A stretch of 45,467 nucleotides of DNA from a virus. The stretch is from IMG/VR virus record IMGVR_UViG_3300045988_055950; one strand, written 5' to 3'. The notes below the pieces were generated by a model. The model was not told the origin of the DNA. It did not search any database and saw only the letters and a list, made by a program, of their open reading frames with translations. Shown here piece after piece: positions 581 to 42,253 of this stretch. Positions within the stretch are counted from its first letter, which is position 1. Every line of letters starts with the position of its first letter. Both the position numbers and the translations under genes were made by a program.

Positions 581-1627
581 TCATATCAGGTTGATTGCTT
601 CCAGTTTATATGGAAGGTCAACATGAGTATAAACAATTTGGGTGACACCCTGTCCTTTGTGACCAACTATCTTCTTGATGATTCTTTCATCAACCTTTGC
701 TTCTGTCAGCAATGACACACATGTGTGTCTTGTGTCATGTGGGCGGTGCTTCATGTTCATCTGTTGCATCAGCGGTGTCCAGTATGAATCATAATAATTT
801 CTATACAGAAAAGGTTCTTCATCAGGTGTGCAAATCAAGTGGTCACATTTTCTCTGCATCCAGTATTCAAAGAATGGAACAATCTTTTCTGCAATTGGAA
901 CTTCCCTGATTCCTGCATCTGTTTTTGATTCTTTCACATAGAACCATCTTTCATCCAGGTGGATGTCTTTCTTTTCAAGGTCAAGCAATTCACCGATTCT
1001 GACACCAGTATAAATGAGCATCAGCACAACAGACAAATATTGATTGGATTCATGTGCATCCCATAAAGTTTTGATTTCCTTCTTGCTGAATGGTTTTCTG
1101 TCAAATGAATTTGGGTTTCCTGGCTTGCTGATGTCCACATATTTGACTATATCCCTTTTATCAGGTGGAACAATTTCATGAATAACAGCATAGTCATACA
1201 TAAGTGACCACAGGTTTTTCAGGGTTTTCAATGTCGGTGTGTTCTTGCCTGATGCATCAACAACCTGTTGCAGGTGGTCAAGTTTGATTTCCACAAACTT
1301 CATGTCTTTGATAGGTTCACAGGTCTTGAATGCTGCTTTGTAACCATTGGAATTTTTAATTGTTGCATAGTGGATTTCAGACCACTTTTCATAAACTTCT
1401 GCAAATGTGATTGTGTCCAGGTGCAGGTCATAGGGGTCTTCATTGAATGCTGCAAGTGCTTGAAGTGCTTCTGCCCTGGTTGAATAATATCCCACAAACT
1501 GATAAATGGGATATGACCTTTTCTTTTCAGGAATCTGTTTCCATCCAACAGTCTTCCTGGCTGCCCATGGATTTCTTCTTTTCCCTGACAGCTTGTAAAC
1601 TGAACCATATGAATTTGGTAATTTCAT
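581..1627 (-). CDS. int: Tyrosine recombinase (phage integrase)
   Basis: C-terminal catalytic pattern HRPHDTRHTCVSLL ... VGHKGQGVTQIVYTHV (R..HxxR..H..Y). The N-terminus YGSVYKLSGKRRNPWAARK is arm-binding-like. The ORF track starts at 1636, but the ATG at 1627 has better spacing from GAAAGGA. Confidence 0.9.
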   Translation of the reverse strand: MKLPNSYGSVYKLSGKRRNPWAARKTVGWKQIPEKKRSYPIYQFVGYYSTRAEALQALAAFNEDPYDLHLDTITFAEVYEKWSEIHYATIKNSNGYKAAFKTCEPIKDMKFVEIKLDHLQQVVDASGKNTPTLKTLKNLWSLMYDYAVIHEIVPPDKRDIVKYVDISKPGNPNSFDRKPFSKKEIKTLWDAHESNQYLSVVLMLIYTGVRIGELLDLEKKDIHLDERWFYVKESKTDAGIREVPIAEKIVPFFEYWMQRKCDHLICTPDEEPFLYRNYYDSYWTPLMQQMNMKHRPHDTRHTCVSLLTEAKVDERIIKKIVGHKGQGVTQIVYTHVDLPYKLEAINLI

Positions 1628-1722
1628 GACCATCATCCTTTCTTTTTGAAGGGTGAAATGGTATAATTATATTGGTGTTTTTGGTGACCATTTCATCCAT
1701 CTGATTTGGTTTTCATCCTTTT

Positions 1723-1762
1723 CCCCTGGCTGTTGGTAGCAGTCAGGGGAATTTTTTATTTT
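1723..1762 (+). terminator. Hairpin plus T-run, plus-strand orientation, between two minus-strand genes
   Basis: CCCCTGGCTG (1723..1732) pairs with CAGTCAGGGG (1740..1749), followed by AATTTTTTATTTT. There is no U-run in the minus-strand sense. Confidence 0.4.
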
Positions 1763-2132
1763 ACAGTGAAATATGACTTGGTGCAGCAGTCTGACCAAAC
1801 TGCATTTTGATAAACTGACCATATTCTTTTGCAGTTCCCCAAAATGCAAGCATTCCTTTGTCATACATAATGACCAGGAAATACTTTTTGATTCCATTCC
1901 TTCCAGTGGATGCAGCATTTCCATGATACTTCTGCATGAATTGTGATTCTTCCAAAGCACTGATTGACTGAATTCTGTTCACTGGTAGTGTGACAGTGGT
2001 TTCAGGCTTTATCCTGGTAATTGTCAGCATTTCTGCATCCAGTTCCAGTCTGCATGGATAATCAGTGGCAAAACCTTCAATCCCTTCATAATGCATGACC
2101 TGGATTCCAGGTTGCTTTTTCTTTCCAAACAT
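1761..2132 (-). CDS. Hypothetical protein of the lysogeny module (moron or superinfection-exclusion candidate)
   Basis: ORF between integrase and repressor with RBS GAAAGGAAGGTG and ATG at 2132. I recognise no motif in it. Confidence 0.55.
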   Translation of the reverse strand: MFGKKKQPGIQVMHYEGIEGFATDYPCRLELDAEMLTITRIKPETTVTLPVNRIQSISALEESQFMQKYHGNAASTGRNGIKKYFLVIMYDKGMLAFWGTAKEYGQFIKMQFGQTAAPSHISL

Positions 2133-2415
2133 CTTGAACACCTTCCTTTCATCTTGAACCTGTCAAAACCCTTGATTTTACTGGACTTTTGACAATTCTG
2201 ACCTTCTGAAAGTTCAAGATGTGGGGTCTTTTATATATTATAATTATTTTTTAGGGAATCATTAAATTTCAATGATTTTATATTCTTTGATTATAAATAA
2301 GTTCACCACATCTTGAACATCTTGAACATCTTGACCTGATAAGTGAAAAACCCTTGTAATATCAAGGATTTGAGCGGTTCAAGATGTCCTGAAAACATCT
2401 TGAATCATCTTGAAC
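2130..2415. promoter_or_regulatory. Iteron module A: 9 copies of CATCTTGAAC/GTTCAAGATG plus an AT-rich core; inverted homologue of 20160..20405
   Basis: Copies at 2130, 2150, 2212(rc), 2309, 2318, 2327, 2377(rc), 2396 and 2406. Box AAACCCTTGATTTTACTG at 2166..2183. Minus-strand core promoter: TTAATG (2260..2265 rc), 17 nt, TATAAT (2237..2242 rc). Confidence 0.7.
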
Positions 2416-2456: not shown

Positions 2457-2867
2457 CTATGCATTTTTCAACATAGAAGAATCTTTTTGAATGTACTTTG
2501 GAAGTTCAGTCATATCAGACATATCTTCCAGGACTTTCTGTTGTCCTGATTGATTCATTTTACAGAACATCTGCAAGACCTTCACTGCTTCCTTTCCAAA
2601 ATTCTTCTGAACCAGTTCCAGGGTCTTTGTTTCTTCTGCTGCTTTGGCAGAATCAAAGCGGTCATCAAAGCACATCAATTCACAAGGGGAAACACCAAAC
2701 TTTCTTGCAAGCTGTTGAATGTGGGTTCGTTTGATGTTTTCAACCTTGTCTGTTTCCCACTTTTGGACTGCTGCCCTGTTGACAGGTGGATTCAGGGATT
2801 TTCCAAGTTCTTCTTGTGAAAGACCTGCATTTTCCCTTAAATACTTTATATATTGACCCATTGTCAT
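2457..2867 (-). CDS. XRE/CI-like HTH repressor
   Basis: N-terminal GQYIKYLRENAGLSQEELGKSLNPPVNRAAVQKWETDK is a classic XRE HTH. It is divergent from the early operon. The ORF track start is 2876 (GTG); the ATG at 2867 is more likely. Confidence 0.8.
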   Translation of the reverse strand: MTMGQYIKYLRENAGLSQEELGKSLNPPVNRAAVQKWETDKVENIKRTHIQQLARKFGVSPCELMCFDDRFDSAKAAEETKTLELVQKNFGKEAVKVLQMFCKMNQSGQQKVLEDMSDMTELPKYIQKDSSMLKNA

Positions 2868-2904
2868 AGTGGTCACATCCTTTCTTATATTTATTTGTAT
2901 CTTG

Positions 2905-2933
2905 ATAATAGCATATTTGCGTTATTTTTTCAA
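2905..2933 (-). promoter_or_regulatory. Sigma70-type promoter for the repressor gene
   Basis: Minus strand reads TTGAAA (2928..2933 rc), 17 nt, TATTAT (2905..2910 rc). A GTATCTT half-site lies at 2897..2903, just downstream. Confidence 0.55.
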
Positions 2934-2973
2934 TTTTTCTTGAAAAAATATCTTAAAAATTTGAAAAAAGGTA

Positions 2974-3002
2974 TTGACAACTGACAAGATACACATTATA
3001 CT
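2974..3002 (+). promoter_or_regulatory. Early rightward promoter (PR-like)
   Basis: TTGACA (2974..2979), exactly 17 nt, TATACT (2997..3002). An AAGATAC half-site at 2986..2992 lies in the spacer. Confidence 0.7.
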
Positions 3003-3338
3003 TGGCTTGTATCTTAAAGAGATACAAAAACAGAAGATTGAAGCAACCAGGAAAGTTCAGGTGCAGTGATAGGGCGGTTCACAAGTGACATGGTGGTCAG
3101 GCTGCTGAATGGCAGACAGAGTGAATGCAGAATAAACAAGACCTGACAAAACAGTTGAAGAAACCAGGAACAATAAGTCAATGAAGCAAAGTGTTCTGCA
3201 CTATTTGAAGAAAGCAGGCAGGATGAACCAAACATCACTTCAAACTTAAACCAAGAAGTTGTTAAGGGGAAGAATCAACAAGGGAGAGGACACAGCACTT
3301 CAATCTTCTATTTGAAACAGAAAGGAAGGGAAACCCTG
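3003..3338 (+). other. ORF-free purine-rich ~335-nt leader of the early operon
   Basis: No plus-strand ORF longer than 22 codons and none with an RBS. The 16-nt motif TTGAAG(C/A)AA(C/G)CAGG(A/C)A occurs at 3038, 3155 and 3205. Confidence 0.5.
3007..3027. promoter_or_regulatory. Operator-like palindrome TTGTATCT-N5-AGATACAA
   Basis: Perfect 8-bp arms at 3007..3014 and 3020..3027, just downstream of the PR-like -10. Confidence 0.55.
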
Positions 3339-4668: not shown

Positions 4669-4878
4669 ATGAATAAAAATAAGTTTGTCAGTGTGATGAA
4701 GTTACATGGTGACACACAGGAAAGCCTGGCAGAAGCAATTGGTCTTTCTGTTCAGCGAATGAATGCAAAAATCAATTCCACAGGTGGTGCAGAATTTACC
4801 ATGTCTGAAATCAGGGCAATCAAAATCAGATATAGTCTGAAAAGTGAAGAAATTGATGACATATTTTTTTGCGATTGA
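4669..4878 (+). CDS. Small HTH (Cro/XRE-like) regulator
   Basis: 69 aa. GDTQESLAEAIGLSVQRMNAKIN fits a helix-turn-helix. RBS AAAGGCGGTGAAG. Confidence 0.6.
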   Translation: MNKNKFVSVMKLHGDTQESLAEAIGLSVQRMNAKINSTGGAEFTMSEIRAIKIRYSLKSEEIDDIFFCD

Positions 4879-4879
4879 T

Positions 4880-4896
4880 GTATCTTGATAAGATAC
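4880..4896. promoter_or_regulatory. Perfect palindrome GTATCTT-GAT-AAGATAC
   Basis: Read directly. It is intergenic, immediately upstream of the RBS of the 4915 gene. Confidence 0.6.
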
Positions 4897-4914
4897 AAGA
4901 AAGGTGGTGAAGTG

Positions 4915-5150: not shown

Positions 5151-6173
5151 ATGAAAGGATTCAAAGTATTCAATTCAGACTGGACTTGCAGAGGTTTTCA
5201 GTTTGAAGTAGGAAAAACATTCACAGAAGATGTCACACCAGTATGTTGTGACAGGGGATTTCATTTCTGCACAAAAGCAGCAGATTGTTTCAGGTATTAT
5301 TCATTTGACCCTGACAACAAGGTTGCAGAAGTGGAAGCACTTGGTGACATTGACACCAACAATGATGACAGCAAGTGCAGCACCAACAAAATTCATATTA
5401 TCAGGGAAATCACCTGGCAGGAAGTGCTTGACCTGGTGAACCTTGGAAAAGCCTGCACTGGTCTTTGCAACAGCGGTGATTGCAACAGCGGTGATTGCAA
5501 CAGCGGTAATCGCAACAGCGGTCTTTGCAACAGCGGTGATTGCAACAGCGGTAATCGCAACAGCGGTAATCGCAACAGCGGTGATTGGAACAGCGGTGAT
5601 TGGAACAGCGGTGATTGGAACAGCGGTGATTGGAACAGCGGTAATCGCAACAGCGGTAATCGCAACAGCGGTAATCGCAACAGCGGTAATCGCAACAGCG
5701 GTAATCGCAACAGCGGTGATTGGAACAGCGGTGATTGGAACAGCGGTGATTGGAACAGCGGTAATCGCAACAGCGGTAATCGCAACAGCGGTGATTGCAA
5801 CAGCGGTGATTGGAACAAGACTTGCTTTTCAAATGGTTGTTTCAATACAGAATCACCAAAGATTTTCCTGTTCAACAAACCTTCTGATTGGACATATCAG
5901 GATTGGTTGAATTCAGATGCAAGATATATTCTGATGAATTGTCCTTCAAATGTTATTGCATGGGTATGGGATGATGACATGACAGATGAAGAAAAAGAAC
6001 AGCATCCTGAATATTCAGTGACAGGTGGATTCTTGAAGCACATTGAAAAAGAAACAGGAAGACAGATGTGGTGGGATGGTCTTTCAGATAGAAAGAAAGA
6101 CATTGTGATGCAGCTTCCAAACTTTGACAAGGACATCTTCAAGGAAATCACAGGAATCACTGTTGAAGGATAG
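5151..6173 (+). CDS. Phage protein with 24 tandem NSG[DNL][CRW] pentapeptide-like repeats
   Basis: N-terminal globular domain (FKVFNSDWTCRGFQFEVGKTF...GFHFC), then 24 units of five residues, then a C-terminal domain. Early-operon position. Confidence 0.8.
   Translation: MKGFKVFNSDWTCRGFQFEVGKTFTEDVTPVCCDRGFHFCTKAADCFRYYSFDPDNKVAEVEALGDIDTNNDDSKCSTNKIHIIREITWQEVLDLVNLGKACTGLCNSGDCNSGDCNSGNRNSGLCNSGDCNSGNRNSGNRNSGDWNSGDWNSGDWNSGDWNSGNRNSGNRNSGNRNSGNRNSGNRNSGDWNSGDWNSGDWNSGNRNSGNRNSGDCNSGDWNKTCFSNGCFNTESPKIFLFNKPSDWTYQDWLNSDARYILMNCPSNVIAWVWDDDMTDEEKEQHPEYSVTGGFLKHIEKETGRQMWWDGLSDRKKDIVMQLPNFDKDIFKEITGITVEG
5460..5819 (+). repeat. 24 x 15-nt tandem array (GGT-NNNNNN-AACAGC) with four unit types
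   Basis: Unit order: LC DC DC NR LC DC NR NR DWx4 NRx5 DWx3 NRx2 DC DW. Units of one type are identical at the nucleotide level. Confidence 0.95.
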
Positions 6174-11642: not shown

Positions 11643-11686
11643 TTGAAACAGGTTCTTCCCAAGGTGCAAATTTTTTTGAAAATCTT

Positions 11687-11703
11687 GTATCTTGGGAAGA
11701 TAC
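11687..11703. promoter_or_regulatory. Perfect palindrome GTATCTT-GGG-AAGATAC
   Basis: Read directly. It is intergenic, upstream of the DNA polymerase RBS. Confidence 0.6.
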
Positions 11704-11727
11704 CAAATTGAAAGGAAGGTGAAGAAA

Positions 11728-13913: not shown

Positions 13914-15821
13914 ATGTTTTTCAAAGGTTATGTTGAAACCAAGGACAAAAAGTGCATTGAAAAATTCAAAAACAGAACAGACTTCAAGACTTATGAGCAA
14001 GTCAAGTCACTTCCTGAATTTGCAGGAATTTTGGATGAAGAAACAATCCTGGTTGACATTGATGATTTTGAACAGTCAGAAGTGTTGATGAATATTGTGG
14101 AAGACCTTCAATTGAATTGCAGGGTTTACGCAACAACCAGGGGAAAGCACTTTTTGTTCAAGAATGCAGGTGTGGACAAATGTTTCACACATTGCAAACT
14201 GGCAATTGGTTTGACAGCAGACATCAAGGTTGGTGTGAAAAACAGCTATGAAATATTGAAATATGATGGAAAAGAAAGACAAATCATATATGACATATAC
14301 CTGGAAGATGGTGAAGAATATCAGGAAATTCCAAAATGGATGAAACCAGTCAGGGGAAAAGCTGAATTCCTGGACATGGATGCAGGTGATGGAAGAAATC
14401 AGGCATTGTTCAATTACATCCTGACATTGCAGTCAGCAGACTTTGAAAAGGAAGAAGCAAGGGATTGTTTGCGAATGATAAACAAATATGTCCTGAAAGA
14501 ACCACTTGCAGAAGATGAACTGGATGTCATCATGCGTGATGAAGCATTCAGCAAGCCTATTTTCTACAAGGGAACAACCTTCCTGTTTGATAAGTTTGCA
14601 GTGTTCCTGAAAAATAATCATCACATCATCAGGGTGAACAGTCAGCTTCACATGTATAAAGATGGAATCTATGTTTCAGGTCAGGAAGAAATTGAAGCGG
14701 TAATGATTCAGCATATTCCACAGTTGAACAGAGCAAAAAGACAGGAAGTCATGGCATACCTGAATATTTTAATCAGGGATAACACAAAGACAGCACCTGC
14801 ATGTGTGATTGCATTCAGAAATGGTCTTTATAATGTTTTGACTGACAGTTTTTCAGAATTCACACCTGATGTGGTCATTACAAATAAAATTCCATGGGAT
14901 TTCAACAGACAGGCATCCAGTGAAGTGATTGACAACATGCTTGACAATGTGTCTTGTGGTGACCATGAAATCAGGTCACTGCTTGAAGAAATAGTTGGTG
15001 CTTGCATGTATAGGTCAAACACCCTTGCAGGTGGTAAAGCATTCATTCTGACAGGAACAGGAAGCAATGGAAAAAGTACATACTTGAAAACACTGTCAAA
15101 CCTTATGTCAGAAAAGAATATATCAGCACTTGACCTGAAAAAGTTGGGTGACAGATTCAGTACAGTCATGATGTTTGGAAAACTTGCAAACATTGGTGAT
15201 GACATTTCAAATGAATTTGTGACTGACACATCACTGTTCAAGAAGATTGTCACTGGTGAAACCATAGATGCAGAACAGAAGGGTCAACCAAAGTTTGACT
15301 TCAAACCATTCTGCAAGCTGCTGTTTTCAGCAAATAACATTCCAAGAATGGGAAAGGGTTCTGATTCACAGGCAATCATGAGAAGACTTGTTATTGTTCC
15401 ATTCAATGCAAAATTCAAGTCTGATGACCCAAATTTCAGACCAGGAATTGAAGAAGACCTGAAAGGTCAGGAATCAATGGAATATCTGATTCAGCTTGGA
15501 ATCCAGGGATTGAAAAGGGTTCTTGCAGCAAAGAACTTCACAACATCTGATGCTATCAAGCAGGAACTGGAAGAATATGAAGAAAGAAACAATCCACTTC
15601 TGATGTTTGTGAAAGATTGTGAAGATGAAGAATTTGACATGCAGACTGAACCAACATCAGCGGTTTATGACAGATACAAGGAATTTTGTCTTGCTGAATC
15701 ATTGCAGGCATTATCAAAGATTGAGTTCAGCAGACAGATGGTCAAGACCTTTGGCTTTCAGATTATTGACAAGAAAATCAATGGTAAAAAATACAGATTA
15801 TTTCAGAAGGTGGTGAACTAA
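13914..15821 (+). CDS. Primase-helicase (prim-pol N-terminal domain + P4/D5-type SF3 helicase)
   Basis: ILVDIDD and TRGKHFLF (prim-pol-like). Walker A LTGTGSNGKST. Walker B-like LANIGDD. Confidence 0.85.
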   Translation: MFFKGYVETKDKKCIEKFKNRTDFKTYEQVKSLPEFAGILDEETILVDIDDFEQSEVLMNIVEDLQLNCRVYATTRGKHFLFKNAGVDKCFTHCKLAIGLTADIKVGVKNSYEILKYDGKERQIIYDIYLEDGEEYQEIPKWMKPVRGKAEFLDMDAGDGRNQALFNYILTLQSADFEKEEARDCLRMINKYVLKEPLAEDELDVIMRDEAFSKPIFYKGTTFLFDKFAVFLKNNHHIIRVNSQLHMYKDGIYVSGQEEIEAVMIQHIPQLNRAKRQEVMAYLNILIRDNTKTAPACVIAFRNGLYNVLTDSFSEFTPDVVITNKIPWDFNRQASSEVIDNMLDNVSCGDHEIRSLLEEIVGACMYRSNTLAGGKAFILTGTGSNGKSTYLKTLSNLMSEKNISALDLKKLGDRFSTVMMFGKLANIGDDISNEFVTDTSLFKKIVTGETIDAEQKGQPKFDFKPFCKLLFSANNIPRMGKGSDSQAIMRRLVIVPFNAKFKSDDPNFRPGIEEDLKGQESMEYLIQLGIQGLKRVLAAKNFTTSDAIKQELEEYEERNNPLLMFVKDCEDEEFDMQTEPTSAVYDRYKEFCLAESLQALSKIEFSRQMVKTFGFQIIDKKINGKKYRLFQKVVN

Positions 15822-15824
15822 TAC

Positions 15825-16793
15825 ATGGAAGAACAAAAATTGCAGATTCTTGAACTGTTCGGTGGAATTGGTTCACCAAGGGTTGCTTTGAAGAATCTTG
15901 GTGTTCCAGTGAAATCAATTGATTATGTGGAAATTGATGAAAAGGCAGTCAGGTCATACAATGCAATGTTTGCTGATGAACTGGAATATAAAACACAGTC
16001 AGTAGTTGGATGGAATCTGAAACCTGACATCCTGATTCATGGAAGTCCTTGTCAGGATTTCAGCATTGCAGGACATCAAAAAGGTGCAGATGAAGGTTCA
16101 GAAACAAGGTCATCCCTTATGTGGGAAACAGTCCACATCATTGAACAGATGGGTGAATGGAAACCAAAGGTTGTGATTTGGGAAAATGTGAAGAATGTTC
16201 TTTCAAAGCACATGAAACATAATTTTGACAGGTATCTGTCATATATGCAGATGCTTGGATATACAAACAATTATGAAATCTTGAATGCAATGGATTTTGG
16301 ATTGCCACAGGCAAGACAAAGGGTCTTTACAGTTTCAATTCTTGATGGTGAAGCATTTGACTTTGACCTGATGAAAAGAAAACCTATGGAAAATATTGAC
16401 AATTATCTTGAAGATGAAGTTCCTGAATATTATGTTGTAACACAACCATCAATGTTGAACAGGATTGCAGAAGGTGATTCAGTATTCAATGGAAGGGTTG
16501 AAGTTATCAAAGACCATGCAATGACAATCACATGCAAACAAATGAGGTGCCCAAACAGCGGTGTTGTGGAACTGGAAGATGGTGATTTCAGATATTTAAC
16601 AGAAAGGGAATGCTGGCGGTTGCAAGGATATTCTGATGAAGATTTTGAAGCTGCACTTTCTGTTCATCCAGGAAGACCAAATTGTCTGAATGGTGCTTTA
16701 TATAAACAGGCAGGGAATTCAATTCCAGTCAATATATTTGAAGCAATGTTTGAAGTCATGCTTCCAAAATTTTTTGGCATAAATGTATCTTGA
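15825..16793 (+). CDS. dcm: DNA (cytosine-5)-methyltransferase
   Basis: Motif I ELFGGIGS, motif IV GSPCQDFS, motif VI WENV, motif VIII QARQRVF, motif X GNSIPV. Confidence 0.95.
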   Translation: MEEQKLQILELFGGIGSPRVALKNLGVPVKSIDYVEIDEKAVRSYNAMFADELEYKTQSVVGWNLKPDILIHGSPCQDFSIAGHQKGADEGSETRSSLMWETVHIIEQMGEWKPKVVIWENVKNVLSKHMKHNFDRYLSYMQMLGYTNNYEILNAMDFGLPQARQRVFTVSILDGEAFDFDLMKRKPMENIDNYLEDEVPEYYVVTQPSMLNRIAEGDSVFNGRVEVIKDHAMTITCKQMRCPNSGVVELEDGDFRYLTERECWRLQGYSDEDFEAALSVHPGRPNCLNGALYKQAGNSIPVNIFEAMFEVMLPKFFGINVS

Positions 16794-16820
16794 AAATAGA
16801 CAGAAAGGAAGTGATGTATC

Positions 16821-19583: not shown

Positions 19584-20154
19584 GAAAATTACACAGCAAC
19601 AGTTTCTTGATTTTATGCAGATACATAAAAGACCTATTATCAATGTTGACACAATGGACTGGCTGATTGGTCAGGGATTCTTTGTGAAGCCTGCTGCAAT
19701 CAACCATCATGGCAACCACACAGGCGGTCTGTTTGAACATTCCATGATGGTTGCACAGGTTCTTGTGGAAATGACACAGAAGTTTGACATCCCTTGGACA
19801 AGACCTGAATCACCATACATTGTTGGAATGCTTCATGATGTGTGCAAACTGGATGATTATTTTGATGAAAATGCATCTGATGTGGTGGTCATGGGAAGTG
19901 GTTCACCTATCAGTAAAGACCCAAAGTGGACATACAATCCTGCACCTATGTTTGCAGGACATGGTGACAAGTCGGTGATGATGCTGTCACAGGTGATGAC
20001 CCTGACAGAAGAAGAAATGTTGTGCATCAGGTTTCACATGGGTGCTTATGTCACAAGTGAATGGGATGCATTTGACAGAGCAATCAGAAAATATCAGTCA
20101 GTGCTTTTCACTCACACAGCAGACATGTATGCATCAAAAGTTAAAGATGTTTGA
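19576..20154 (+). CDS. HD-domain phosphohydrolase
   Basis: HGNHTGGLFEHS and GMLHDVCK give the H...HD metal-binding pattern. Confidence 0.8.
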   Translation: MNEKITQQQFLDFMQIHKRPIINVDTMDWLIGQGFFVKPAAINHHGNHTGGLFEHSMMVAQVLVEMTQKFDIPWTRPESPYIVGMLHDVCKLDDYFDENASDVVVMGSGSPISKDPKWTYNPAPMFAGHGDKSVMMLSQVMTLTEEEMLCIRFHMGAYVTSEWDAFDRAIRKYQSVLFTHTADMYASKVKDV

Positions 20155-20159
20155 TGTCA

Positions 20160-20405
20160 GTTCAAGATGTGGTTCAACATCATCTTGAACCGATAAAATG
20201 CAGTAAAATCAAGGGTTTCAGGGGTGCGGTTCAAGATGGTTCAAGATTGTTTTATATTAAGGATATATAAGAATAGAAAATGATTGAAATTTAATGATTC
20301 TCTAAAAATTATCTATAATAGAAAATAACACCAACATCTTGAACCTTGCATCATAAAAATTCATAGAAATCCAGTAAAATCAAGGGTTTTCAGCGGTTCA
20401 AAATG
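20160..20405. promoter_or_regulatory. Iteron module B, inverted homologue of module A, upstream of the late-regulator gene
   Basis: GTTCAAGATG/CATCTTGAAC at 20160(rc-type), 20181, 20229, 20239, 20335 and 20396 (degenerate). Box CAGTAAAATCAAGGGTTT at 20201 and 20372. Core promoter: TTAATG (20291..20296), 17 nt, TATAAT (20314..20319). Confidence 0.7.
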
Positions 20406-20458
20406 TTTTTGCAATGTTGAACCAAGAAGTTGAACCAATAAAGGAAGAAGGTGTGAAG

Positions 20459-20881
20459 GTGACAGCAAAGGAATATTTGTTGCAGATAAAAGAACAGAAG
20501 CAGAATATCAGGAAGCAGGAAGAATATATTCAAAGATTAAGGGATTCATTGACCATTGCAGGAATCAGTTATGATAAGGAAAGAATTCAAAGTTCCCCTG
20601 ACCCTGACAAATTTGCAAAGATATTCGGTCAGATTGATGAAGAAGAACAAAGGCTTGAAGACATGAAGACCAGGTTTGTGAATACAAGGGTGAAGATTAT
20701 CAATCAGATTCATCAGCTTGCAGAAGAAAAGCATCAGAATGTTTTGTATCTTGTGTATGTTGATGATAAGACCCTGAAAAAAGCATCCCAGGAAATGTGT
20801 TTTTCATATGAGTATGTGAAAGAACTTCATGGTGCTGCATTGCAGGCTTTTGACCTGATGTTCCCACCACAGTCTGCTTGA
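20459..20881 (+). CDS. DUF1492 / sigma-70 region-4-like late transcriptional regulator (Ltr/RinA-class candidate)
   Basis: N-terminal TAKEYLLQIKEQKQNIRKQEEYIQRL coiled coil. C-terminal LVYVDDKTLKKASQEMCFSYEYVKELHGAALQAF is HTH-like. It lies directly upstream of terS. GTG at 20459 follows GGAAGAAGGTGTGAAG; the ORF track start is 20414. Confidence 0.6.
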   Translation: MTAKEYLLQIKEQKQNIRKQEEYIQRLRDSLTIAGISYDKERIQSSPDPDKFAKIFGQIDEEEQRLEDMKTRFVNTRVKIINQIHQLAEEKHQNVLYLVYVDDKTLKKASQEMCFSYEYVKELHGAALQAFDLMFPPQSA

Positions 20882-20907
20882 ATCCCACCACTCATGTTAT
20901 ATATAAT
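20878..20907 (+). promoter_or_regulatory. Candidate late promoter
   Basis: TTGAAT (20878..20883), 18 nt, TATAAT (20902..20907). It overlaps the regulator stop codon and the 25-bp palindrome. Confidence 0.5.
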
Positions 20908-20916
20908 ATAACATGA
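20892..20916. repeat. 25-bp perfect palindrome TCATGTTATAT-ATA-ATATAACATGA
   Basis: Read directly: 11-bp arms with a 3-nt centre. Confidence 0.9.
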
Positions 20917-20930
20917 AATGTTAGGTCAAT

Positions 20931-20964
20931 AAGACATCCTTTGAAGAAGGGGTGTCTTATTTTT
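20931..20964 (+). terminator. Rho-independent terminator between the candidate late promoter and terS
   Basis: AAGACATCCTTT / AAGGGGTGTCTT form a 12-bp stem (two G-U pairs) with a GAAG loop, followed by ATTTTTA. Confidence 0.7.
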
Positions 20965-38251: not shown

Positions 38252-39312
38252 TGTATGAAAATGTAACTTATGAAGACATTCTTCAAAGGATGCTTGACAG
38301 AGTTCCTGACAGTATGGACAAAAGGGAAGGGTCAATCATTTATGATGCACTTGCACCTGCTGCTGTTGAATTGCAGTTGATGTATATTGAATTTGACATC
38401 ATCCTTCAAGAAACTTTTGCTGATACTGCATCCAGGGAATACCTTATCAGAAGGGCAGCAGAAAGGGGAATCATTCCTATTGCTGCAACACATGCAATCC
38501 TGAAAGGTGAATTCACACCTTCCACTTTGAACATTCCTATTGGTGCAAGATTTTCTTGTGGAACATTGAACTATGCAGTCACAGAAAAAATTTCTGATGG
38601 TGCATACAAACTGGAGTGTGAAACAGAAGGTGAAACAGGAAATGCACAGTTTGGTCAGATGATTCCTATTGACTATATTGAAGGACTTGAAACCTGTTAT
38701 CTGACAGAACTGTTGATTCCAGGTGAAGATGAAGAAGCAACAGAAGACATCAGAACAAGATATTTTGATACTTTTGACACAAAACCTTTTGGTGGAAATC
38801 AAAAAGACTATATTCAAAAGACAAATGCACTTCCTGGTGTTGGAAGCACCAAAGTCACACCAGCGTGGAAGGGTGGTGGAACTGTTCTTCTGACAATCCT
38901 GGATTCAAACTTTGATGCAGCATCTTCCACATTGGTGAAATCAGTGCAGGAAGCAATTGACCCTGACCCACAGGGGGAAGGTCTTGGAATTGCACCGATT
39001 GACCACATTGTGAAAGTAAACACTGCAACAAATGTGAAGGTCAATGTGACAACTTCCCTGACATTTGATGAAGGATATTCTTTCAATACACTGAAAAGCA
39101 CAATCACAGATACAATCAGTGCATATTTGAAGGAAATCAGAAGTCAGTGGGCAAACTATTCACAGTCAGTTGTCAGAATCAGTCAGATTGAAACAAGACT
39201 TCTTGGAATCAAGGGAATTGTGGATATTTCAAACACTAAAATCAATGGTATTGCAAACAATCTGACACTTGATAAATATGAAATTCCAGTGATGGGTGGT
39301 GTTAGTGGATGA
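38251..39312 (+). CDS. Baseplate J-like protein (XkdT-like)
   Basis: YEDILQRMLDRVPDSMDKREGSIIYDALAPAAVEL is a typical Baseplate_J N-terminus. Confidence 0.85.
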   Translation: MYENVTYEDILQRMLDRVPDSMDKREGSIIYDALAPAAVELQLMYIEFDIILQETFADTASREYLIRRAAERGIIPIAATHAILKGEFTPSTLNIPIGARFSCGTLNYAVTEKISDGAYKLECETEGETGNAQFGQMIPIDYIEGLETCYLTELLIPGEDEEATEDIRTRYFDTFDTKPFGGNQKDYIQKTNALPGVGSTKVTPAWKGGGTVLLTILDSNFDAASSTLVKSVQEAIDPDPQGEGLGIAPIDHIVKVNTATNVKVNVTTSLTFDEGYSFNTLKSTITDTISAYLKEIRSQWANYSQSVVRISQIETRLLGIKGIVDISNTKINGIANNLTLDKYEIPVMGGVSG

Positions 39313-40110: not shown

Positions 40111-41913
40111 ATGTCAGAATTTAGACAGCTTATTATCACAAACAAAGGACAGTCTTTGATGGCAAAACTTATTGCAGGAAAAGCAAATGTGACATTCACA
40201 AAGGTTGCAGCATCTGCCACAACTTACAATGATTCACAGATTCCTGCACTGACTGCACTGTCCAACATCAAACAGCAGGTTGCTGTTTCCAAAGTCACAA
40301 GAATCAATTCTGTTGCAGTTCAGGTTGATGCTGCAATGGAAAACAGTGCATTGACAACTGGATATTATATGAATTCCATTGGTCTTTATGCAAATGACCC
40401 TGATGATGGTGAAATCCTTTATGCAGTTGCAGGTGCAAATGTGGGGGCATATATGCCACCTTATAATGGAATCACTGTCAGTGGTGCATATCTGAAACTT
40501 GTGACCACAGTTTCAAATGCAAGCAATGTTTCCATGACTGTTGACCCTGCTGCTGTTGCAACAGTAGGTGACATTAATGCATTGCAGGCAGAAATCACAG
40601 ACATCCAGTCCTATATTGGTTATACGGATGCAGACATCTATGGTGTTGAAGTTGACTTCAAGAACAAGAAATTCACAAGACTTGCAGGTGCAGTTGGAAA
40701 GACACCTGGTGATGCTTTTAATGGTGTCAAGGCTTTTGGTGGCAGAAGAAGATGTAATGTCACTGATGAAGGAAAGGTTGTTGCATATTTTGGTGATGCA
40801 GGATATTCAGAAACTGGTGTCCTGACTTCTGCAATCACAAAGGGTGAAGGTGATAACATCAGAACATATGCAGCAAAAACAAAGGTGCAGGTCATGGTTG
40901 AACAGCCAAAGTTCTATTACAAGGTTGTTCCACTTGAACTTGAAAAGATTCAGGGTGGCAAAGGCTTCCACATGAGAAAGGCAAGATATTATGTGTCTGA
41001 CACCATGAAAGCAGGTTTCAAACTTCATCCTGCATTCATCAAGGATGGAAAGGAAAAGAACTTTATTTATCTTTCTGCATATGAAGGATGTACTTATGAC
41101 ACATCTGCTTCTGCATACAAACTGAATGATGCACAGGATGTTGACTGGACAGATGATGTTCTTGCATCCATTGCAAATGCAAAACCTACAAGTGGACTGG
41201 CACAGAGCGGTGCAACAAGAAATGGATTCAGAACCATTGCTGCAAAAAGGGGTTTAGGTTGGTCACAGGAAACTGTTCAGGCAGCAACTGCAACAGAACT
41301 TCTTTTTCTTATTGAGTATGCATCTTTTGACATGCAGTCAAAGATTGGTGCAGGTGTAACAACCAAGACTGATGATGGTGCAACATCCATGACAGAAATC
41401 ACTGGTGCAACCACTACACTTGGAAACAAGACGGGTTCTGTTGTCAATACAAATGGTTATTCTGTTGTTGCATATCGTGGTGAAGAAAATCCATTTGGTA
41501 ACATTTGGAAGTGGATTGATGGTATCAATGTTTATAACAAGAATGAAGGTTCTGTTTATATTGCTGACCATGGATTCAAGGATGATACAAATGCAGCACC
41601 ATATTCTGATGCAGGAATCACAATTTGTGGTTCAAATGGTTATGTTTCTGCTTTTGCTTACAATGAAGACTTTGATTGGTTATTCATTGCAAGTGAAGTT
41701 CTTGGAAATAGTTCACTTCCAGTTGGTGACTATTTTTGGCAGAACAAAGCATATAATGGCTACACGGTCGCTCTATTGGGCGGTGATTGGGATATTGGTT
41801 CTAATGCGGGCGGTTTCTATTGGAGTGTGCGTAATGCTTCGGGTAATCGTTATCGTGCTATCGGCGGTCGCCTGCTGTATGTACCTGATGGTACTGATGC
41901 ACCTGCTGCTTAA
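40111..41913 (+). CDS. Tail fibre / receptor-binding protein; DGR target with C-terminal CLec/FGE-like variable domain
   Basis: 600 aa. The N-terminal part is fibre-like. The C-terminus LLGGDWDIGSNAGGFYWSVRNASGNRYRAIGGRLLY is the VR. Confidence 0.85.
   Translation: MSEFRQLIITNKGQSLMAKLIAGKANVTFTKVAASATTYNDSQIPALTALSNIKQQVAVSKVTRINSVAVQVDAAMENSALTTGYYMNSIGLYANDPDDGEILYAVAGANVGAYMPPYNGITVSGAYLKLVTTVSNASNVSMTVDPAAVATVGDINALQAEITDIQSYIGYTDADIYGVEVDFKNKKFTRLAGAVGKTPGDAFNGVKAFGGRRRCNVTDEGKVVAYFGDAGYSETGVLTSAITKGEGDNIRTYAAKTKVQVMVEQPKFYYKVVPLELEKIQGGKGFHMRKARYYVSDTMKAGFKLHPAFIKDGKEKNFIYLSAYEGCTYDTSASAYKLNDAQDVDWTDDVLASIANAKPTSGLAQSGATRNGFRTIAAKRGLGWSQETVQAATATELLFLIEYASFDMQSKIGAGVTTKTDDGATSMTEITGATTTLGNKTGSVVNTNGYSVVAYRGEENPFGNIWKWIDGINVYNKNEGSVYIADHGFKDDTNAAPYSDAGITICGSNGYVSAFAYNEDFDWLFIASEVLGNSSLPVGDYFWQNKAYNGYTVALLGGDWDIGSNAGGFYWSVRNASGNRYRAIGGRLLYVPDGTDAPAA
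41765..41881 (+). repeat. DGR variable region (VR)
   Basis: It aligns gap-free to 42009..42125 (offset +244). There are 25 mismatches, all opposite TR adenines. Confidence 0.9.
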
Positions 41914-42008: not shown

Positions 42009-42125
42009 CAGTCACTAAATTAGGCAGTAATTGGAATAATGGTTCTAATGCAGGCAGTTTCAATTGGAATGTGAATAATACTTCGAGTAATCGTAATCGT
42101 AATATCAGCGGTCACCTACTAAATG
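42009..42125 (+). repeat. DGR template region (TR)
   Basis: Non-coding copy of the VR. It is AAT-rich; in the VR frame it reads NWNNGSNAGSFNWNVNNTSSNRNRNISGH. It contains 40 adenines, 25 of which are substituted in the VR. Confidence 0.9.
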
Positions 42126-42253
42126 CACAAGGTAAATAAAATCGTTGCTTCTGCCCTGCCACTTGGCAAAATATAAAAATCATTTGAACTGTTTTGGTAA
42201 ATCCTGCAAAGGAAGTTGAAGAATCAGTTTGAAGTGCATACAAAGGAAATGTC

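Follow-up and report, generated by a model that had tools for sequence, protein, structure and literature searches.

Two homologous repeat modules, A and B, were characterized in a viral DNA sequence of 45,467 nt (IMG/VR record IMGVR_UViG_3300045988_055950, the whole of which is referred to here as the window). They lie 18 kb apart in inverted orientation, and in each of them an AT-rich stretch of ~87 bp is flanked by two groups of 10-bp iterons that occur in both orientations. This arrangement suggests that both are probably origin iteron arrays of the Staphylococcus aureus pathogenicity island (SaPI)/PriRep type, with the primase-helicase of the phage as the candidate initiator. The best reading is that the genome contains either two such origins, or one origin and one helicase-binding control site.

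The iteron (GTTCAAGATG/CATCTTGAAC) is strongly over-represented in the window, with 24 occurrences of CATCTTGAAC or its complement at up to one mismatch, compared to 8.3 ± 2.8 expected, and no shuffled sequence reached 24. An initial annotation, made from the sequence alone, had reported nine copies in 2130..2415 (module A), and the genome-wide motif count confirmed these (seven exact, two with one mismatch), including a triple with a 9-bp period at 2309, 2318 and 2327, the third copy of which is CATCTTGACC. Also found as described were an 18-nt box (AAACCCTTGATTTTACTG), whose complement occurs twice in module B (20203..20218 and 20373..20391), and an AT-rich core in module A (80% A+T; 61% genome-wide). 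Module B contains seven copies at up to one mismatch in 20140..20405. Its location agrees with that given earlier, but degenerate copies at 20171, 20411 and 20427 extend it to ~20440, beyond the previously noted end at 20405. Every half of A and B contains an opposed CATCTTGAAC ... GTTCAAGATG pair, and the gene-proximal half is iteron-poor in both modules. The centre of module A additionally carries the palindrome AATCATT-N7-AATGATT.

No inverted repeats in the genome are longer than the two that join modules A and B (2209-2287/20269-20347, 79 nt, 82% identity; 2150-2197/20358-20405, 48 nt, 81% identity). When A was reverse-complemented and aligned locally with B, the score was 154 (dinucleotide shuffles, 22.6 ± 2.8; z = 46), at 81.4% identity across 237 columns, and the elements were collinear in the order described previously. 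Masking of the 10-mers left an alignment of 83% identity across 119 columns (z = 30). The similarity therefore exceeds the 10-mers, contrary to the possibility, raised in the initial annotation, that only these are shared. The earlier description of the modules, including the claim that they bracket the block from the repressor gene to the HD gene, was correct in essentially every detail.

The primase-helicase encoded between the modules was compared with proteins of known structure using phmmer. Its sole match in the PDB at E ≤ 1 was 7OLA, SaPI5 PriRep5 (E = 1.2e-47), in an alignment that spans residues 241-609 and extends into the C-terminal domain. PDB 1KA8, the C-terminal domain of P4 alpha, was not among the matches at this threshold. 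The winged-helix C-terminal domain is present in a single copy in the window.

SaPI Reps start replication via a C-terminal winged-helix domain that recognises iterons, and the SaPI origin, located immediately downstream of rep, contains 6-12 iterons, divided into halves by an AT-rich middle, with two or more in each half that point opposite ways (PMC9371898). The phage system resembles this one (7OLA, PMC9371898) in having a homologous SF3-type, self-loading helicase as the putative initiator, with the C-terminal winged helix as the presumptive iteron reader, and in dividing its iterons between the two sides of an AT-rich centre, with opposed copies on either side (nine in A, at least seven in B, and 12 in relatives). 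An origin downstream of the helicase gene, as in the SaPIs, is found in several relatives (L224, L300, L304, L308 and Paenibacillus phage Wanderer), but not in the window. The SaPI system also matches iteron specificity to the Rep C-terminal domain, and the covariation described below suggests the same here. The phage modules differ from SaPI origins in iteron length (10 bp, compared to 5-6 bp), in the presence of two inverted copies 18 kb apart per genome, and in an extra AAGG[GC]TTT box in the spacer; and the carrier is a temperate tailed phage of Clostridia, rather than a satellite. The initial annotation had proposed origin-type iterons for the primase-helicase on the model of phage P4 ori and crr. 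The origin assignment is favored by our analysis, with the SaPI5 PriRep5 origin replacing P4 as the closest model.

To establish the distribution of the modules, IMG/VR was searched by pattern scans followed by clustering (L-numbers are locus labels, and WIN denotes the window). The same 250–320 bp element was present in at least 57 loci recovered by the pattern scans, and many more were recovered by later searches. In all, more than 100 module-bearing loci were examined, and related viral contigs with the same architecture numbered well over 100. The canonical module contains 12 10-mers oriented ---+--++-+++, each half comprising three outer direct copies, one inverted copy, a ~37-nt spacer and two inner copies next to the AT-rich centre, which is followed by the mirror image. 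Across 38 unique modules, the centres (extracted with 5 bp added on each side) had a mean length of ~105 bp and were 79% A+T. All carriers belong to one phage group with a common replication block, the primase-helicase being the protein family most often common to module-bearing loci; at least 398 relatives of this helicase are present in IMG/VR. The modules are confined to block junctions, at two positions. The first lies between the HD, c10 or c5 gene and the sigma-like gene, which is followed by terS, and the second between the repressor, ImmA or orf126 gene and the integrase gene or orf126. A terS family is common to many of these loci.

Only ~7 true modules were detected in 185,579 species-representative genomes, in Clostridia (e.g. 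Eubacterium aggregans SR12, locus L246), indicating that the motif is phage-specific and making sites for a host factor unlikely. A blastn search of GenBank phages with both window regions revealed no module homolog, and a literature search on the motif returned only unrelated papers, in which the 10-mer apparently occurs by chance. An exact scan with the 18-mer box yielded mostly chance matches, yet it gave the first three related loci.

The spacer that separates the inverted iteron from the inner ones contains a second motif, AAGG[GC]TTT/AAA[GC]CCTT, often in the form of a small palindrome. This motif was found in 33 of 40 unique modules, in every iteron class, at a density of 4.2 per kb compared to 0.26 per kb outside (16-fold). 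In the window it lies at 2348-2372, 2166-2184, 20203-20218 and 20373-20391, and it has the same position in L283, L286, L294, L320 and others. The orientation of the box confers polarity on the module. The binder of the motif could be a conserved replisome part or a host factor, or the box could be a priming or hairpin signal.

Iteron classes were compared with helicase C-termini using a helicase-alignment locus search and a de novo repeat caller. While the architecture is constant, the iteron differs by lineage, and each of ~12 iteron classes is accompanied by its own sequence in the wing of the winged helix (Table 1).

Table 1. Iteron classes and the accompanying helicase wing sequences
Iteron	Wing
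GTTCAAGATG	DKKINGKKYR
AATTCAAGAT	DKVINKKKYR or DKTINKKKYR
AGTCAAGATG	NKTINKKKYR
GTTCAAGGT	GEFS...GKKCR
ATTCAAGTT	DKWLNKKKHR
TGTTACGGT	IKRVGSKTVR
TGTTACAGAT	AKRLPGKGKQIVR
CTGTTACC	TKKVGGKVFR
TGTTACACTTG	VKRIGNKTHR
GGAACAGAT	PKWIRNRKTR
GTTACGGTT	(I/V)VKLNGQTRR

Three natural swaps (WIN vs L256/L264, L285 vs L287, and L266 vs L267) separate the helicase from the sigma-like protein encoded beside module B, because the sigma-like C-termini are identical or nearly so within each, while both iterons and wings differ. Conversely, L257 and L267 have the same iteron and wing, and different sigma-like proteins. The swaps settle the choice of candidate binder in favor of the helicase wing, against the sigma-like protein. 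Sliding-window identity was calculated for two of the pairs (WIN vs L256, and L266 vs L267). From the helicase start to the module, and leaving indels aside, identity was low only in the last ~35 helicase codons and in the iteron module, in both pairs. The ~4 kb between wing and module is mostly 96–97% identical, broken only by one or two gene-sized indels. Physical linkage therefore does not explain the covariation of iteron and wing.

Other candidate binders were considered and rejected. Two unrelated families of sigma-like protein occur with an identical 10-mer, and identical sigma-like proteins occur with different iterons. The same 10-mer is flanked by tyrosine and by serine recombinases, with differing N-termini, and it is unchanged next to repressors of the HTH_3, LexA-like or ImmA-linked types. 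This variation beside a constant 10-mer excludes sigma-like sites, integrase arm sites and repressor operators. An RNA leader or attenuator, in which inverted 10-mers could pair, is a less likely reading: within a class it is sequence that is kept, rather than pairing, and both orientations occur on each side. The initial annotation had offered operator arrays for a single regulator as an alternative. This is not supported for the CI-like repressor or the sigma-like protein, which leaves only a possible secondary function of the helicase itself.

The relationship between the two copies was examined in relatives. Paenibacillus phage Wanderer (MH431930, L508), which has been cultured, has a helicase 48% identical to that of the window and the same gene order. 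It contains one module, with GTAACAGAT iterons, at 38535-38803, where the record has no origin annotation. The module fills the 256-bp gap before the sigma-like genes, its first iterons overlapping the primase stop codon, and no module was found near int. The single module after the helicase gene indicates that a single downstream origin is the ancestral state, to which module B corresponds. The module is 39 nt past the helicase stop codon in L224, and ~590 nt past it in L300, L304 and L308.

Loci containing orf126, the neighbor of module A, were collected by a single-protein query. An iteron cluster was present directly upstream of orf126 in all 56 loci, in many iteron classes, and in each of the 44 classifiable loci the repressor gene points into the module. 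Forms of module A with 12 iterons occur in L015, L157, L169 and L189. Modules A and B share their iteron class in six of the seven genomes checked, representing three classes: the window, 2788500273_000002, 3300029822_000025 and 2832751446_000003 (AGTCAAGATG), together with 3300045988_062904 and 3300045988_063164, both of class GTTACGGTT. In 2788500273_000002, A and B are 100% identical across 287 bp. An exact tandem pattern search did not find a second module in phages of the GGAACAG class.

These sequence comparisons demonstrate the architecture, the relationship of the helicase with PriRep5, the covariation of iteron with wing, and the agreement of A with B inside a genome. From them we infer binding, melting and origin firing at the modules, as well as any distinction between firing and mere helicase binding at A. 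The C-terminal winged helix would bind the iterons through its beta-hairpin wing, allowing hexamers to load on either side of the AT-rich centre, which would then melt, with the helicase priming and unwinding. Module A would be a duplicate of B, placed in inverted orientation beside the lysogeny genes, and both copies would stay matched to the helicase.

Several observations weigh against this interpretation. The window modules are not adjacent to the helicase gene, with B 4.3 kb downstream and A 11.5 kb upstream. Genome 3300045988_047007 (L453/L230 vs L256) is discordant, with A of class GTTCAAGATG, B of class AATTCAAGAT and the wing DKVINKKKYR; its left arm is 99% identical to that of the window, and it is probably a recent recombinant. 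The cumulative GC skew of the window gave no origin signal, although it is uninformative because the coding strand dominates. A single-sequence AlphaFold model of the C-terminal domain, a helical bundle followed by a beta-hairpin with the variable residues in the terminal hairpin, agrees with a winged helix, but its confidence is low (predicted local distance difference test score, pLDDT, 49). The covariation could also originate from another binder that is tightly co-inherited with the wing. Lastly, the centre in the window lineage also contains a conserved outward promoter-like site, making transcriptional and origin roles inseparable there.

A possible, though on balance doubtful, alternative is that only B fires, and that A is a helicase-binding array that titrates or pairs, as in the handcuffing of P1 incA/incC, or acts as a cis enhancer, as in P4 crr. 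The ancestral single module directly after the helicase gene, in Wanderer and the SaPIs, is consistent with this, as are the iteron-poor gene-proximal halves of both window modules and the discordant genome, in which the wing is tracked by module B only. However, A retains the full origin architecture, with its AT-rich centre, in many iteron classes and in all 56 orf126 loci, which is more than pure titration would need; the iterons on both sides of this centre argue for a second origin over a mere titration site. P4 crr, moreover, is built differently.

It is rather unlikely that the modules are instead promoter/operator cassettes, with outward promoters for int/orf126 and for the late regulator, and with the 10-mers acting as operators or roadblocks, possibly for the helicase. 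Both centres contain sigma-70-like sites directed toward the downstream gene, namely TTGAAA-18-AATAAT in A (2272..2243, minus strand), and TTGAAA-17-AATTAT (20284..20312) and TATAAT (20314..20319) in B (plus strand). In the window lineage these sites lie in a conserved 32-mer, and the centre as a whole is nearly invariant in five close relatives with differing iterons. The modules are always directly upstream of integrase/orf126 or the sigma-like gene, with a polarity given by the box orientation. Across the 38 unique modules, however, the gene-facing strand had no advantage in promoter score (18 vs 12; means 8.6 vs 8.4), and what is generally conserved is AT-richness, rather than promoter sequence. 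The iterons track neither the sigma-like protein nor the repressor, and the motif scan of the window did not find the 10-mer in the cI/cro switch region (2877..3311). A transcriptional side role, in which helicase binding gates int and the late regulator, is possible.

Modules A and B might also act together as a functional pair of inverted origins, flipping the early block or switching replication from theta to double rolling-circle mode (which would supply concatemers for packaging), and gating int and the late regulator through outward promoters; we regard this as unlikely. The block could be flipped, or replication converted, if the two inverted origins on either side of the replication genes recombine or if forks meet between them, and helicase loading might gate the promoters, coupling excision and late expression to replication. 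Traces of such a process would be the inversion isomers in the lineage whose 287-bp repeats are perfect, and the homogenisation of A with B inside genomes. Double rolling-circle replication has been proposed for the yeast 2-micron plasmid.

The initial annotation had further suggested that the modules are recombination targets for inversion of the 18-kb block. Such inversion, as a flip-flop or a programmed switch, seems very unlikely as the function of the modules. In its favor, contigs of both arrangements exist, with integrase-module-c5-helicase in L171 (2719-3006) and L205 (11198-11482), and helicase-c5-module-sigma-like in L155 (8155-8440), 2788500273_000002 and L138+L190. The flanks of these isomers are 94–97% identical, the breakpoints lie within the module, A and B of this lineage are identical over 287 bp, and the phage encodes its own recombination proteins. 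However, both isomers occur only with perfect repeats, where short-read assemblers mis-join, and so this lineage may represent either a real flip-flop or an assembly artifact. For the window itself the suggestion has no support: the modules are only 81% identical, with a longest exact match of ~25 nt. The standard arrangement was found in 44/44 classifiable orf126 loci and in 34/34 helicase-linked module-B loci with a readable downstream ORF (open reading frame). No invertase gene turned up in Pfam scans of ~23 window ORFs between 581 and 21427, and inversion leaves the covariation of iteron and wing unexplained.

A packaging (pac) site for the small terminase, of the P1 or SPP1 kind in which repeats surround a cleavage site in the middle, is highly improbable: although module B lies ~0.6 kb from terS, whose family is found in many module-bearing loci, a second copy lies 18 kb away beside int, iterons differ between genomes that are 92.5% identical from the module through terS, and the Wanderer module is at the opposite end of the linear map from terS, with sigma-like and endonuclease genes intervening.

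The interpretation of the modules as SaPI/PriRep-type origins was also compared with other systems. Phage P4 alpha is a D5-type primase-helicase with a C-terminal domain that binds short iterons at two separated loci. Its type I iterons are octamers (TGTTCACC), and crr consists of two 120-bp direct repeats, rather than a copy of ori. P4 ori/crr is thus a looser analog, with the iteron GTTCAAGATG differing in sequence and length, and the structure of crr sets it apart from A and B, which are collinear and each have their own AT-rich centre. In herpes simplex virus (HSV), identical oriS origins lie in the inverted repeats that flank the short unique segment, with initiator sites around an AT-rich centre; promoters lie on both sides of these origins, and isomers arise by inversion of the segment. 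HSV offers no more than an analogy; its proteins, like its host domain, are unrelated to those here. In plasmids P1 (incC/incA) and F (incB/incC), a single type of initiator-binding repeat likewise forms two arrays, one on either side of the replication genes, but these control arrays lack an AT-rich unwinding centre of their own, and the initiators are unrelated. Operators for CI of the lambda OL/OR kind would lie at the divergent promoter of the repressor and covary with it, neither of which was observed.

The closest phage precedent is Enterococcus phage Abitsa, which has a PriRep5-like helicase and whose origin was inferred to lie at an AT-rich region surrounded by seven 10-bp repeats (PMC13517437). 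Origins of the PriRep5 type, with 10-bp iterons flanking AT-rich DNA, had thus been inferred before, and the kind is known (PMC13517437). Abitsa is lytic and has a single origin, and the paper reports neither a duplication nor a covariation analysis (PMC13517437). What is new here is the conserved inverted duplication that brackets the whole early block, the positioning of the putative origins, which coincide exactly with module boundaries and precede int and the late regulator, the additional box in the spacers, and a clear series of iteron-wing specificities.

These results provide a concrete, testable assignment of candidate origins in temperate Clostridia phages of the gut, which form a large and uncultured group. 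The pairing of about a dozen iteron classes with wings constitutes a natural specificity table, which could guide work on how self-loading helicases of the PriRep type read DNA, and could inform the replicon incompatibility of co-resident phages and satellites. The inverted two-origin layout, with origins at the lysogeny/replication/late boundaries, is unusual for phages, and may explain the recombination breakpoints there (swaps of sigma-like family and of integrase type).

Small ORFs containing only the winged helix abut modules in L125 (2836-3225), L164 (759-1163) and L222 (242-646), one of them followed by a Mor-family activator, and fusions of Bro-N to the winged helix occur near modules in L049 (2333-3016) and L223 (5585-6331). 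These proteins may be competitors or regulators of origin binding.

The features of the window are listed in Table 2, with domains assigned by the Pfam scans. Positions 1-99 and 45369-45467 form an exact 99-bp terminal direct repeat, indicating that the assembly closes into a circle and that the genome measures 45,368 bp. The sigma-like gene is followed by terS and the late genes, and module B lies ~0.6 kb upstream of terS.

Table 2. Genes and module elements in the window
Feature	Position	Strand	Remarks
Integrase	581..1636	minus	
orf126	1761..2132	minus	no known domain; conserved neighbor of module A
Module A	2130..2415	minus reading, toward orf126 and int	nine GTTCAAGATG/CATCTTGAAC copies flanking AT-rich centre
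Box AAACCCTTGATTTTACTG / CCAGTAAAATCAAGGGTTT	2166..2183 / 2166..2184	minus	gene-proximal spacer of module A
AT-rich centre of A	2222..2308		87 bp, 80% A+T; presumed unwinding region
Spacer palindrome AAACCCTTG-TAATAT-CAAGGATTT	2348..2372		one copy of AAGG[GC]TTT box
HTH_3 repressor	2457..2876	minus	
Early/replication block		plus	SNF2 helicase, Hjc-like resolvase, PD-(D/E)XK+AAA_24, DUF669, family B polymerase
Early/replication block, continued		plus	D5-type primase-helicase (13914..15821), C5 methylase, ThyX, HD protein (stop 20154)
Primase-helicase	13914..15821	plus	635 aa; D5_N, DUF5906, Pox_D5 (Pfam)
Winged-helix C-terminal part	15714..15818	plus	recognition-helix region SKIEFSRQ, wing QIIDKKINGKKYRLFQ
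Module B	20140..20440	plus	lies between HD gene stop (20154) and sigma-like gene
Box CAGTAAAATCAAGGGTTT	20203..20218	plus	module B, first copy
AT-rich centre of B	20249..20334		86 bp, 83% A+T
Box CCAGTAAAATCAAGGGTTT	20373..20391	plus	module B, second copy
Sigma-70 region 4 / DUF1492-like late regulator gene	20414..20881	plus	directly 3' of module B

The ATG of orf126 lies within an iteron copy, GTTCAAGATG (2130-2139, minus strand), and its ribosome-binding site lies between two copies, and so helicase binding could block translation or transcription of orf126/int. At the other boundary, the gap between the sigma-like gene and terS (20878-20961) contains a promoter-like TTGAAT-18-TATAAT, followed by a strong terminator-like hairpin with a 15-bp stem, which suggests that the late genes are under read-through or antitermination control.

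Further repeats were noted elsewhere in the window. A 38-nt repeat, consisting of a T-run followed by the palindrome TGTATCTTGATAAGATACA, occurs at 4860-4897, 11667-11704 and 16765-16802, each copy just 5' of a plus-strand ORF (4885, 11692 and 16821, respectively), and may be a common regulatory or terminator element of the early block. The gene at 5151..6173 contains a tandem array with a 15-nt period (5400-5892), coding for pentapeptide repeats in a DUF7666 protein. The late/lysis region contains two pairs of diverged direct repeats, one at 41767-41884 and 42011-42128 (118 nt, 79% identity), and the other at 44949-45028 and 45057-45136 (80 nt, 74% identity), within the ORF at 44370..45371.

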